From Eledone cirrhosa (lineage: Eukaryota), in assembly GCA_964016885.1 (NCBI GenBank), contig OZ024748.1, forward strand, positions 44,392,001 to 44,456,000: a stretch of 64,000 nt of DNA. The letters are read 5' to 3'. The position numbers and the translations under genes are program-made. How positions within the stretch are numbered: the first letter of the stretch is position 1; each line of letters opens with the position of its first letter. The notes under the pieces are model-generated. The model was not told the origin of the DNA. It searched no databases and worked only from the letters and a program-made list of their open reading frames with translations. Of the stretch, positions 5,833-63,286 are shown piece after piece.

Positions 5833-6092
5833 TTAAGTGTTTCTGTAGGAAAGGTAAAGGAAAGAGAGTGTTCTATGTAAGCTACAGAGCTATTTAGTTA
5901 TGTAATAAACAACATAAGACAATTATTCCATTTACCAAAAGTTTCACGAAGGCAGACGAGCTCGACACAGACGTCACTTCAAATAAAATTTCATTCTGAT
6001 GAGTAATTTCAGAAGTCTGTGTCGAGCTTGTCTGTCTTCGTGAAACCTTTGGTAAATGGAATAATTGTCTTATGTTGTTTATTACATAACTA
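5833..6092. mobile_element. Fold-back Penelope-like element (78-bp arms, 42-nt spacer, tail on the left)
   Basis: Arms 5895-5972 and 6015-6092; hammerhead core in spacer plus right arm; TA-repeat flanks. Confidence 0.7.
5988..6062 (+). ncRNA. Hammerhead ribozyme candidate with irregular stem II
   Basis: atttcatt-CTGATGA-(39 nt)-GAAA-cctttgg-TA|aatggaat. Confidence 0.55.
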
Positions 6093-6101
6093 TATATATA
6101 T

Positions 6102-6340
6102 GTGAAGGCACATGGCTTAGTGGTTAGAGCATTGGCCTTGCAATCGAAAGGTTGTGAGTTCAATTCTCAGACTGGGTGATGTGTTGTTTCCTTGAGCAAG
6201 ACACTTTATTTCACATTGCTCCAGTTTACTCAGCTGTAGAAATGAGATGATAGGGACTGGGGTCTCTATCATTCCACTGCAAAGTGGTCGTGGAGGTGCC
6301 ACGGCAAAAAAAAAAAAAAAGCACCCAGCCTGCACTGTAA
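6102..6340 (+). mobile_element. SINE family A, 3'-truncated
   Basis: Matches the 5432 copy up to the poly-A/gcacccagc segment. Confidence 0.85.
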
Positions 6341-7185
6341 GGGTCTGTATGTATATGTGACTATGTCTGTGTATGTAGGTCTGTATGTGTGTGTGTGTAG
6401 GTCTGTATGGGTGTATGTAGGTCTGTATGTATGTATGTTTAGGTCTATGTATGTATGTGTAGGTCTGTATGTATGTGTAGGTCTGTATGTGTGTGTGTAG
6501 GTCTGTATGTATATGTGTGTATGTGAGTATGTCTGTGTGTGTAGGTATATCTGTATGTGTGTGTATAGGTCCGTATGTGTGTAGGTCTATGTGTATGTGT
6601 GTGTAGGTCTGTATGTGTGTGTGTAGGTCTGTATGTGTGTGTGTGTTGGTCTATCTGTATGTGTGTGTGTAGGTACATCTGTATGTGTGTGTAGGTCTAT
6701 GTGTGTGTGTGTTGGTCTATCTGTATGTATGTGTGTGTGTGTGTGTAGGTCTGTATGTGTGTATGTAGGTATGTGTGTGTTTAGGTCTATGTGTGTGTGT
6801 GTGTGTGAGTGAGTTTAGGTATGTGTGTGTGTGTGTGTGTGTGTGTAGGTCTATGTGTATGTAGGTCTATCTGTATGTGTGTGTAGGTCTATCTGTATGG
6901 GTGTGTGTAGGTCTATGTATGTGTGTGTAGGTCTATCTGTATGTATGTGTATGTAGGTCTATCTGTATGAGTGTGTAGCTCTATATATGTGTGTGTAGGT
7001 CTGTATGTATGCATGTGTAGGTCTATCTGTATATCTGTATGTGTGTGTAGGTCTATCTATATGTGTGTGTAGGTCTATCTGTATGTGTGTGTAGGTATGT
7101 ATGTAGGTCTGTATGTATGTATGTATGTAGGTCTATGTATGTGTGTGTAGGTCTATCTATATGTGTGTGTGGTGTATGTGTGCGT
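6340..7185. repeat. gtaggtct(g/a)t..(GT)n minisatellite
   Basis: Directly visible. Confidence 0.95.
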
Positions 7186-7425
7186 GCTCAAGAGACCATA
7201 TGTATTGTGTTAATTGGATGGTAAGACTTGAGTTAAACTTCAGAATATTATATCATTGCTGAAGACAAGAATGTTAAGCACGTTTGTGTGTGTTTGCGTA
7301 TGTGCATGCACCTGTGTGTTTGTGTTGTTTATGTGTGTGTGTGTGTATATATATATATATATACACACACACACACACACACACACACACACACACACAT
7401 ATATATTTATATATATATATATATG

Positions 7426-7521
7426 CAGGGTGTCCCAAAAATGTATACACACTTTGATTACCTGTACAGGTAATATTTATTAGAATGCTGTTGAAGTGTG
7501 TATACATTTTTTGGGACACTC
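7426..7521. mobile_element. ~95-bp Tc1/mariner-type MITE
   Basis: TIR cagggtgtcccaaaaatgtatacacactt. Related copies at 17210-17287, 17462-17537, 17571-17644 and 34605-34701. Confidence 0.7.
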
Positions 7522-7626
7522 TACACAGACACACACATATATATATCATCATCATCATCATCATCACCGTTTTACGTCCGTTCTTCCACGCTAGCATGGG
7601 ATATATATATATATATATATATATAT

Positions 7627-7974
7627 CATCATTTCATTTTCATCATTTCATTTTACGTCCGCTTTTTCCCTGCTTGCAAGGGTGGGACGGGAACTGATTT
7701 TGGCTTGATTTCTACAGCTGGATGCCCTTCCTAACACCAACCTCATTTACAGTGAGTGCTGGGTGCTTTTTTGCCGTGGCACCTCCACGACCACTTTACA
7801 GTGGAATGATAGGGACCCCATTCCCTATCATCTCATTTCTACAGCTGAGTAAACTGGAGCAATGTGAAATAAAGTGTCTTGCTCAAGGAAACAACACATC
7901 ACCCGGTCTGAGAATTGAACTCACAACCTTTCGATTGCAAGGCCAATGCTCTAACCACTAAGCCATGTGCCTCC
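7627..7974 (-). mobile_element. SINE family A
   Basis: Full reverse-complement copy. Confidence 0.88.
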
Positions 7975-59954: not shown

Positions 59955-60522
59955 ATGTATATATATATATATATATATATATATATATATATATATATAT
60001 ATATATATATTTATATATTTATATGTATATATATTTATATGTATATATATATATATATATTTATATGTATATATATTTATATGTATATATATTTATATGT
60101 ATATATATATATATACATATATATATATATATGTATATATATGTATATGTATATATACATATATATATATTTATATGTATATATATGTATATGTATGTAT
60201 ATATATATGTATATATATATATATATATATAACTCTACTATGTGTCTCTCTCTCCATCCCCCTCCTCCCTCTCTCTAATATGTCTCCTCCCCCTCTCTCT
60301 CTCTCTACTATATAGATGATCAACTTTAATATATTCGGTGAGAAACTAAGATTCAGTTGTCAGGAATATGATGACCTGAAACAGGACAGCATCCCACATA
60401 CACTCCCCCCTCCCCCCACACACACACATATATATTCAGACACAGATATATACTGGCACAGAGACAGATATACACATATATATTCATATATATGTAAGAT
60501 ATATTTGTATATATATATCTAT

Positions 60523-61345
60523 GCAAAGTAAAACCTACTACAGTCAGTAGGCATCTCTAACAAAATACACCCCCGTCCCATCCACACCGCCCCTTTCAAA
60601 TGTAAAGTTATGTTGGTGCCACAACATCCAGGCCGAAACAAATGAGATCGTGTAGGTGTAACGACAAAAAAAACACACAGTCCACGCTGTAATGTGGCCG
60701 TGTAGGCAACACGGTAAAAACCTCCCAGTCCCACACTGTAAATGTGGTTGGTGTTAGGAAGGGCATCCAGCCGTAGAAAACACGCCAGACAGTCCACGCT
60801 GTAATGTGGCCGTGTAGGTAACACGGTAAAAACCTCCCAGCCCCTCACTGTAAATGTGGTTGGTGTTAGGAAGGGCATCCAGCTGTAGAAAACACGCCAG
60901 ACAGTCCACGCTGTAATGTGGCCGTGTAGGTAACACGGTAAAAACCTCCCAGCCCCTCACTGTAAATGTGGTTGGTGTTAGGAAGGGCATCCAGCTGTAG
61001 AAAACACGCCAGACAGTCCACGCTGTAATGTGGCCGTGTAGGCAACACGGTAAAAACCTCCCAGCCCCACACTGTAAATGTGGTTGGTGTTAGGAAGGGC
61101 ATCCAGCTGTAGAAAACACGCCAGACAGTCCACGCTGTAATGTGGCCGTGTAGGTAACACGGTAAAAACCTCCCAGCCCCTCACTGTAAATGTGGTTGGT
61201 GTTAGGAAGGGCATCCAGCTGTAGAAAACACGCCAGACAGTCCTATGCGAGCAAGACAACCACTCTTGCCTCAAGTGGGAAAACTCCCGTCCAAACCCAT
61301 GCAAGCGTGGAACATGGACGTTAAACGATGATGATGATGATGATG
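60523..61345 (+). mobile_element. RTE 3'UTR copy containing five tandem 112-bp units
   Basis: Same 3'UTR as 15120-15488. The unit acagtccacgctg...acgccag starts at 60677, 60789, 60901, 61013 and 61125. Confidence 0.88.
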
Positions 61346-61627
61346 CATATATATATATATATATATATATATATATGTATGTATGTATATGTATATAGGT
61401 ATGCATATATATATGTATGTATATGTATATATGTATGCATATATATATATATATGTATGTATATGTATATATATATACTCCAAACGAAAGTTTGGAAGAA
61501 ACGATTGTCAGCAATTAAATAATTTGAACACAACTTTGATAATTTTCTAATTTATATATATATATTCATATATATATTTATATATATATATATGTAGGTG
61601 TATTCATATATATATATAGATATATAT

Positions 61628-61961
61628 CATCATCATCATCATTTCATTTTACGTCCGCTTCTCCCTGCTTGCAAGGGTGAGATGGGAACTGATTCTGGCT
61701 TGATTTCTACAGCTGGTTGCCCTTCCTAACACCAACCTCATTTACAGTGAGTGCTGGGTGCTATTTTTGCCGTGGCACCTACACAACCACTTTACAGTGG
61801 AATGATAGGGACCCCAGTCCCTATCATCTCATTTCTACAGCTGAGTAAACTGGAGCAATGTGAAATAAAGTGTCTTGCTCAAGGAAACAACACATCACCC
61901 AGTCTGAGAATTGAACTCACAACCTTTCGATTGCAAGGCCAATCCTCTAACCACTAAGCCA
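61628..61961 (-). mobile_element. SINE family A
   Basis: Reverse-complement copy. Confidence 0.87.
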
Positions 61962-62610
61962 TATTCAAATATATATATATATACATATCTATATATTCAT
62001 ATATGTATGTATGTATATATACATACATTTATATATATATATACACAATCCACAAGACTCCAACTTACAAAGACGTTGTAGGTGAGAACATATGTTCTCC
62101 ATTAAGTTGTATGTGTGTGTCCTGTTATGTGTAAACAGTAATAGCTGAGTCAGTGTGAGGATGAGGAGGGACACTATTAGCTCATGGGATGTCCCTTCAT
62201 AGAGAAAGAAGAATATATATATATATATATATACATATGTGTGTGTGTGTGTATGTGCATATATATGTGTATATATTTATATATGTGTGTATGTATATAA
62301 ATATATATATATATCTATATATACAATAAAGTATGTCCATAGAATCATTTGATAAGATATATACACCATTTCCTCTCCCAATCAGCATAATCAACCACAC
62401 AAAAAACCAATTAAACCAGGTTATAAAATTAAAAGGCACCTATGAAGAAATAATAGATAAATAAACGACAGCCATCTATTCACGATCAACAGCTATAGAA
62501 TATTTACCCATCATTTCAATAGCACGTGGAAATCGATTAAATATATCGTCAACAATTAGGTATAAAATTAAAGTTAGCAGAAAAAAATATATATAAACAT
62601 ACGAAGATTA

Positions 62611-62694
62611 TGTTTCTAACCCATGGGGTTTCATTCGCTTTTGGAAATATCCGATCAAGGATAAATTCACGAGCTTCGAAATCATCAGGAAACA
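62611..62694 (-). ncRNA. Type I hammerhead ribozyme with long stem II
   Basis: tgtttc-CTGATGA-(49-nt stem II with tatcc/ggata)-GAAA-ccccatgggt-TA|gaaaca. Confidence 0.72.
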
Positions 62695-63286
62695 AACTCA
62701 TTTGGACGAAGATTTTTCTTAAATGATCCCCGCCAGAAACGAATTCAAAATGGCTAAGAACTGTGACGTGGCAGTGGTCAAGTCAGAAATAATGTGATTG
62801 GTGCCTTACGGCGAATGGGCTGGTTGCTAGAATGCGCAGCCTAATATTGCATCTCAACCTTATGGGAGATTATCAAATATAAAGATTTACATATACACAA
62901 ACTAGACAAAGTCATAGATATATATATATATGTTTCTGGCAACCATTCACGATGTGGCTCAATGACGAATTAATTAATTAAATAATCAACAATCAGAGCA
63001 ATATACAATAAAGTATGTCCATAGAATCATTTGATAAGATATATACACCATATATATCTATATATCTATATATACTTATACACAAACATGCACATACATG
63101 TATGTATGTATATATATATATATATATATATATATATATATATATAAAAGAACAAGTATGACCCTGATGGCAGAGCTCATATATATATATACATCCACAC
63201 ACACATATATATATATATATATATATATATATATAAAATAAAGTTAAATAAAAAGTCAAATGTTTAAACTTTAGCTTCGTTTATTG

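Follow-up and report, generated by a model that had tools for sequence, protein, structure and literature searches.

A covarying bulged hairpin at the tail junction of Penelope-like element stubs in Eledone cirrhosa, a candidate docking site for the reverse transcriptase

In Penelope-like elements (PLEs), inverted pseudo-long terminal repeats (pLTRs) with a tail on one side form the standard insertion unit (PMC8557442, PMC3846280). Hammerhead ribozymes are known in pLTRs (PMC4209133), and the Hydra clade combines insertion into (TA)n with canonical hammerheads (PMC8557442). In Poseidon of Anolis (PAc), the reverse transcriptase (RT) begins synthesis inside an AC-rich stem-loop, at two internal positions on either side of the tail. 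The PAc protein extends both target strands and depends on the part of the RNA that lies downstream of the pLTR (Frangieh et al., 2024, PMC11167929). Self-priming on an antisense template has been proposed as well (PMC3846280). Here, a short hairpin is described that recurs at the tail junction of PLE-derived stubs in 64,000 nt of Eledone cirrhosa DNA (contig OZ024748.1, positions 44,392,001 to 44,456,000; this whole stretch is called the window). The window is AT-rich animal DNA with many (TA)n tracts, remnants of RT genes of the long interspersed element (LINE) type and an open reading frame (ORF) for a C2H2 zinc-finger protein.

The hairpin is composed of an RCTC/GAGY lower stem, a bulge of 2 nt (TA, TT or TC) in the 3' strand and an upper stem that varies in sequence but stays paired (CAG/CTG, TGC/GTA, TAC/GTA, TGT/ACA, TGA/TCA). 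The loop comprises 3 to more than 30 nt. The hairpin opens the tail and, on balance, probably serves, in the sense RNA, as the place where the element's RT-endonuclease docks, a prediction made from sequence and by analogy with PAc. We infer that it is the counterpart of the Poseidon stem-loop in this group. The original prediction had listed 13 simpler hairpin motifs next to insertion breakpoints. All 13 are present at their positions and on their strands, those at 5866 (A) and 22075 (E1) as degenerate copies. Recurrence at junctions was borne out, but the shape had to be amended by the 2-nt 3' bulge and the covarying upper stem.

Several described systems resemble this locus. PAc shares the tail between two initiation sites, the stem-loop downstream of the pLTR and the extension of both strands, the last being proposed for the window from sequence. 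Its stem-loop differs: it is AC-rich, lies 111-118 nt inside the ORF, contains the start sites and lacks target homology, whereas the window hairpin is non-coding, bulged and found across phyla, with the breakpoint just 5' of it in a TA match (PMC11167929). The C-terminal endonuclease-positive PLEs of the Hydra clade use (TA)n targets, carry a canonical type I hammerhead near the 3' end, occur in Octopus and, in three of six novel consensi, have the same bulged hairpin at the pLTR/5' junction; unlike the ORF-less window copies they are autonomous and possess an ORF (Craig et al., 2021, PMC8557442). The insertion units of Arkhipova et al. (2013, PMC3846280) share head-to-head inverted pLTRs, a palindromic junction and a tail on one arm. 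This tail is optional and 30-40 bp long there versus 35-100 nt in the window.

Repeat elements were defined independently of the motif by self-BLAST of the masked window, and G (33240-33311) was read by eye. Self-BLAST yielded local repeats at 5897-6090 (A), 9490-9809 (B), 10782-10872 (C), 21947-22052 (E1), 27898-28175 (F), 37913-38014 (E2) and 52242-52283 (H) as well as the direct repeat 62324-62367/63006-63049 (K). Thus, nine elements were counted, eight fold-backs and one direct repeat. Inverted repeats at 38586-38645, 51897-51931, 53006-53454 and 59750-59775 and pairs of short interspersed elements (SINEs) were left out, because no listed hairpin adjoins them. As predicted originally, one arm stops shortly before the hairpin and the other continues in all nine elements, so that the tail extension is one-sided throughout. 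The breakpoint had been placed a few bases before the hairpin. This holds for seven elements, in which the last shared base is 1-5 nt upstream (A, B and C 4, F 3, G and H 5, K 1 nt), but not for family E with 12-20 nt. Tail-less ends therefore cluster just upstream of the hairpin instead of being randomly placed. The tail-less arm runs into TA in eight elements, while E1 meets (AG)n first. Given the TA ambiguity, a register of 5-6 nt upstream fits A, B, C, F, G, H, K and the metagenome contig L090 (see below), not family E. In B/C and L090, the breakpoint ignores a perfect TATA that lies a few bases farther upstream. The distance between hammerhead GAAA and breakpoint was 51, 58, 32, 35 and 42 nt in the five computed cases; the breakpoint tracks the hairpin more tightly than the hammerhead. 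In the cases computed, the tail ends 11-56 nt beyond the hairpin, and this second breakpoint falls outside the original model.

The signal is positional, and the count of the loose motif alone shows none: A regular expression written from the original motif gave 15 matches compared to 9.3±3.2 in 200 local dinucleotide shuffles (maximum 19). A stricter form chosen post hoc gave 11 compared to 3.8±1.6 (maximum 9). Four listed sites have no adjoining second arm. Two of them, 21663 and 38138, belong to short fragments, 54612 represents a lone tail between TA tracts, and 33567 lies a 74-nt TA tract downstream of a same-strand hammerhead arm. Long TA tracts are located exactly between a hammerhead arm and a same-strand hairpin at 33494-33567 and 63178-63235, and the breakpoint TA looks there as if it had been expanded or re-targeted.

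For structural analysis, nine of the 13 window copies and L090 were aligned, leaving out the long-loop hairpins D1, D2, I and K. Unprompted, RNAalifold gives the bulged fold on these 10 copies with a covariation term of -1.35 and two-sided changes in four of seven pairs; the covariation on which the original prediction depended is hence found. Paired cells amount to 94% versus 79.5±2.7% in shuffles (reached in 0/500), and slid registers yield 14-50%. A descriptor of the bulged form with at least three upper pairs returned nine matches, eight of them at listed sites, compared to 2.2±1.1 in 150 shuffles (maximum 5). Bulges of 0, 1 or 3 nt were not enriched in the same scan of the window. A covariance model search of the window recovered the nine window training copies, followed by 34212-34246 (E 0.09), which lacks the context of an element, and D2 (E 0.83); the long-loop hairpins D1, I and K were missed.

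The same hairpin is encountered outside E. cirrhosa. The ends of six novel Hydra-clade consensi (File S7 of PMC8557442) were checked by eye, and the hairpin is clear in three of them. In Hydra-2_Amil (coral) and Hydra-2_Ajap (sea cucumber), the full bulged form follows a hammerhead and a TA-rich stretch. In Hydra-1_Ajap, it begins at nt 3 and the 3' end stops at TATATT, which, by its sequence, is the same junction viewed from both sides. The flanks of different lineages do not align, whereas the stem covaries. A scan of metagenomes and prokaryote genomes with the pattern of hairpin J gave 97 loci with 99 matches, among which one of the 96 scorable ones has a PLE context. This is L090, an animal metagenome contig with a rhodopsin-type G protein-coupled receptor ORF. 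It comprises a fold-back, a hammerhead 3' half (GAAAC) and a tail-less arm that stops at TATA 4 nt before the hairpin, features that were not part of the search pattern. A metagenome scan with the family E hammerhead yielded no match, and scans of viral contigs (7, 31, 2 and 24 loci) revealed no PLE context; L146 from these scans has GAAA and TA but no fold-back and was rejected. In addition, the eukaryote-like contig L070 (1230-1256, minus strand) holds a full hairpin match shortly before (ATTT)n, without hammerhead or fold-back.

Four sequencing runs were aligned to 37958-38200 at 80% likeness. Families E and D are abundant (14,972 contig pieces in run X1, 12,144 reads in X13) and are present in a second organism (6,833 pieces in X5). 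Thus, non-coding stubs retain the hairpin in two species. Among the 40 variants listed of 127, none affects the lower stem or the bulge; the spacer that precedes the hairpin varies strongly. Position 38032, opposite T, is G in most family E sequences and A in 2-19%; both nucleotides pair on the sense strand only. Opposite-strand joints cluster at the hammerhead (37960-37977). Tandem joints were found in all four runs, with joints from 38017 to 37961 in X1 and X13, corresponding to family E monomers of about 77 nt. Within the window, no tandem hammerhead monomers were found. Non-coding hammerhead-bearing PLE derivatives with this tandem arrangement resemble the metazoan non-LTR retrozymes (PMC7229834, PMC7761336, bioRxiv 10.64898/2026.07.22.740005), from which the window copies differ as dispersed fold-backs. 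In the accessible text of PMC7761336, no conserved motif identifies the autonomous partner of these retrozymes.

The features of the window are as follows:
5870-5890, minus strand: bulged hairpin A with one broken lower-stem pair; fold-back 5897-6090, tail to about 5834.
5996-6046, plus strand: type I hammerhead core of element A; an 8-bp stem I is possible, stem II is long and weak.
9453-9477, minus strand: bulged hairpin B; fold-back 9490-9809 with arms 97.5% identical, tail to 9399.
9535-9582, minus strand: hammerhead core in the tailed arm of B, 8-bp stem I.
9717-9764, plus strand: hammerhead core in the tail-less arm of B; the arm ends in (TA)n at about 9815.
10745-10769, minus strand: bulged hairpin C of the B family (94%); fold-back 10782-10872.
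21664-21711, plus strand: hairpin D1 with long loop and TC bulge; short fragment, no second arm.
21971-21994, minus strand: hammerhead core E1; the upstream strand of stem I is lost at the centre of fold-back 21947-22052.
22076-22095, plus strand: degenerate hairpin E1.
27946-27983, minus strand: hammerhead core in the tail-less arm of F; fold-back 27898-28175.
28090-28127, plus strand: hammerhead core of F on the tailed side; ahead of the hairpin, this arm is broken by a SINE piece (about 28173-28295).
28309-28333, plus strand: bulged hairpin F.
33212-33235, minus strand: bulged hairpin G; fold-back about 33240-33311, tail to 33164.
33321-33493, plus strand: fold-back with variant hammerhead (core near 33430-33460), on the same strand as hairpin I and upstream of it across the TA tract; absent from the original prediction.
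33568-33607, plus strand: hairpin I, in which lower stem and TT bulge are preserved but the upper stem is poor; its tail spans 33568-33652 and has a TA tract on either side.
37961-37984, plus strand: hammerhead core E2 with the Hydra-type layout ctgatgat...tgaa; fold-back 37913-38014.
38027-38045, plus strand: bulged hairpin E2, tail to about 38086.
38141-38175, minus strand: hairpin D2; reads extend it upstream into sequence resembling the hammerhead arm at 63236-63340.
52319-52357, plus strand: hairpin H, whose 3' strand may end at 52342 or at 52357; fold-back about 52227-52313.
54612-54632, plus strand: bulged hairpin J; lone tail 54612-54669 between TA-rich tracts.
55106-55138, minus strand: hammerhead of a tail-less copy that ends in TA at about 55057.
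62957-62999, minus strand: bulged hairpin K, which follows the upstream copy (63006-63049) of a 44-bp direct repeat by 1 nt; the tail-less copy is at 62324-62367.
63147-63177, minus strand: unbulged hairpin beyond the TA tract after the 63298 arm, uncertain member.
63298-63335, minus strand: complete hammerhead in a tail-less arm that ends in TA at 63235.
Element H (52319-52397) looks chimeric, with pLTR and hairpin start of G type, 3' strand and tail of E type and a switch inside the hairpin. Further tail-less stubs that end in TA, likewise outside the original prediction, are found at 18633-18690, 61479-61552 and 55058-55138 and have hammerhead halves or a full core.

The PLE origin proposed originally is corroborated by type I hammerheads in the arms, by inverted pLTRs with a one-sided tail and by the same hairpin junction in Hydra-clade consensi. 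A type I core with stems I and II is predicted in A, B, F and at 33430, 55106 and 63298, and the core only in E. A Rfam scan of the window listed no hammerhead among its best 150 matches, which were repeat-driven and below the gathering score. Judged by these features, the stubs are truncated or non-autonomous copies of (TA)n-targeting PLEs and likely belong to the Hydra clade. Insertion into (TA)n, which is seen in the window elements, is not diagnostic of Hydra alone, since Naiad and Neptune target (TA)n, too. The A and E hammerheads resemble the File S2 layout of PMC8557442 with its short stem III. By contrast, those of B, F and 63298 have a U-A palindromic stem III that is not in the File S2 table and may come from another clade such as Neptune. 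Naiad was rejected because it lacks a canonical hammerhead; at the ends of three octopus Naiad consensi, inspected by eye, neither the hairpin nor likeness to the window arms was seen. A look-alike in Naiad_Mmer is located in the middle of the 3' untranslated region (3'UTR), not at a junction, and was treated as chance. The description of the families as unrelated was overstated: B, C and F share hammerhead flanks, A and J a tail, H unites G-type and E-type parts, and D reads reach an arm like that at 63236-63340. About four lineages can be discerned from sequence in the window.

The following mechanism is proposed. The transcript would read 3'UTR, hammerhead, pLTR end, UAUA, hairpin, 5'UTR, and the RT-endonuclease would bind the hairpin in this sense RNA. 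One nicked target strand would start cDNA about 5-6 nt upstream of the hairpin, resulting in the tail-less arm, and the other 11-56 nt downstream, resulting in the tailed arm. Which base is copied first would be decided by a TA match of 2-5 nt to the target, and joining of both cDNAs near the hammerhead would create the fold-back. Lone tails would result from synthesis that began at the far site and ended at the near one. A start set by the hairpin is supported by the skipped TATA in B/C and L090, by the tight spacing between hairpin and breakpoint and by the sense-only pairing at 38032. A broader version can be put forward only tentatively: a pan-metazoan hairpin (cnidarians, echinoderms, cephalopods) that serves as RT-binding ruler of Hydra-clade PLEs, with initiation 5-6 nt upstream on a UAUA template pairing with a nicked (TA)n primer, an arrangement of boundary element plus template as in telomerase, and a cis signal by which hammerhead stubs are mobilised in trans.

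A number of observations weigh against docking at the hairpin. Two of five pairing measures do not exceed the shuffles (163/500 and 456/500), the 10 aligned rows represent about four window lineages plus L090, and the pairing statistics ignore this kinship. The bulged descriptor is post hoc, derived from the window sites themselves. Single copies fold weakly (z +2.4 to -3.0), the upper stem of hairpin I is poor, and A and E1 have broken pairs. G>A at 38037, found in about 15% of X13 reads, breaks an upper pair with no partner change among the variants listed. The read alignment gives no clean counts of TA breakpoints, as subfamily differences at 38002 mix tailed and tail-less reads. Outside the window, Hydra-1_Amil, Hydra-1_Crog and Hydra-1_Obim, three of the six consensi, show a partial match only, and Hydra-1_Obim ends at TATA without a tail. 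Poseidon initiates without homology to the cut DNA (PMC11167929), which speaks against the detail of priming by pairing. In six frames of the 64-kb window, neither an ORF nor a motif remnant of a PLE-type RT or GIY-YIG endonuclease was detected; the RT matches are the LINE-type remnants elsewhere. Therefore, the clade assignment rests on non-coding features and not on phylogeny or the RT/endonuclease signatures of the Hydra clade (RWK, DKT, a CxCX5C linker, no CCHH), and the window copies are PLE derivatives, not autonomous members, for which absence of the ORF is expected. Finally, the last shared base in family E lies 12 (E2) and 20 nt (E1) upstream of the hairpin, and eight of nine window breakpoints are situated inside a TA match of 2-5 nt, so that microhomology alone predicts much of the pattern.

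The two last-mentioned points, with family E using TATAT at its distance, also favour a rather unlikely explanation in which the hairpin is a conserved 5'UTR element with another job (5'-end protection after hammerhead cleavage, translation of uncapped RNA or tuning of hammerhead folding) and the neighbouring TA stretch alone sets the breakpoint. In Hydra-1_Ajap, the hairpin precedes all other structures and the ORF begins about 90 nt later, which would suit such a role, but a slightly more distant perfect TATA would not be expected to be skipped, the breakpoint would not follow the hairpin more tightly than the hammerhead, and non-coding stubs in two species would have little reason to keep it. 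A signal at the DNA level appears still less probable. Here, the GIY-YIG endonuclease would recognise the folded tail as single-stranded cDNA or extruded DNA and cut at the adjacent TA during resolution, leaving the tail on one side. PMC8557442 ascribes the tail to endonuclease-mediated resolution, the D. virilis enzyme needed tail sequence to cleave, as recounted by PMC11167929, and both the two TA tracts exactly between arm and hairpin and the lone tail at 54612 would fit. Yet, genomic tail ends map onto RT initiation sites in PMC11167929, and the alternation of G-U and A-U at 38032 favours the sense strand, while the cDNA is antisense.

It is very improbable that the motif is a palindromic DNA promoter at the pLTR/5' junction (TATA plus an initiator-like motif) without any folded RNA. 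Although a 34-bp Penelope repeat scores as a basal promoter (PMC2377424) and pLTRs contain TATA and initiator-like motifs (PMC3846280), this repeat is unnecessary for normal initiation (PMC2377424), the TATA is only about 4 nt away, and the upper stem conserves pairing, not sequence, around a loop of widely differing length. Shared descent without function, or chance, would agree with the loose-motif count within the shuffle range and with the relatedness of the window families. It can hardly be reconciled, however, with a stem that covaries between unalignable flanks and with the same fold in coral and sea-cucumber elements and L090.

Additional observations concern hairpins elsewhere. At 45885-46135, 35/57-bp units repeated in tandem match the bulged descriptor (at 45978 and 46070) and are similar to hairpin K. 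Neither a hammerhead nor a TA flank was seen at this array, which may be a minisatellite that arose from a tail, or chance. In the body of K, a second bulged variant (62852-62869, minus strand; TCTC/GAGA, TT bulge) lies about 50 nt past the tail end, and in Hydra-1_Ajap, the first copy is followed, about 50 nt on, by another that is hairpin-like. Both could relate to the second start site, or be chance. Short islands between TA tracts at 44304-44337 (minus strand) and 28392-28431 hold small unbulged hairpins and are uncertain tail variants. The inverted repeat element at 53006-53454, without hammerhead or listed hairpin, lies between TA tracts and has in one arm a SINE piece that also interrupts element F at 28210-28295 (93%). 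The central SINE domain (e.g. 10262-10290, 53908-53939) contains CAG-N9-CTG-TA like hairpins B and F; kinship of hairpin B to the SINE core was rejected, as linear similarity is not significant (407/2000 shuffles). Short inverted-repeat elements resembling miniature inverted-repeat transposable elements, with GGGTGTCC-type ends, are inserted in TA at 7428-7528, 17206-17284, 17465-17642 and 34607-34730. The zinc-finger ORF (24579-27011, plus strand) is a single exon of 810 aa with polyQ and polyH tracts.

Earlier work has already established fold-backs, hammerheads, tails and internal initiation. The words 'hairpin' and 'stem-loop' do not occur in the main text of PMC8557442, so that the motif is not described there, and 'hairpin', 'stem' and 'secondary structure' are absent from the accessible text of PMC3846280. 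The hairpin is undescribed in the literature covered on PLE tail structure and recognition, including these two papers, PMC2377424, PMC7229834 and PMC7761336, a scope outside which most subscription papers and image-only figures fall. New is a cross-phylum, covarying hairpin, a real cis element in a known kind of system, with docking as its putative function. The choice of internal start sites by PLE RTs and the origin of one-sided tails have been explained only in part so far, and for one clade. As a short covarying structure that is conserved across phyla, the hairpin offers exact mutants in which it can be broken, restored or moved. Furthermore, as a non-coding marker it connects hammerhead stubs lacking an ORF with their autonomous partner, and it allows template handling by PLEs and telomerase to be compared at a defined site.

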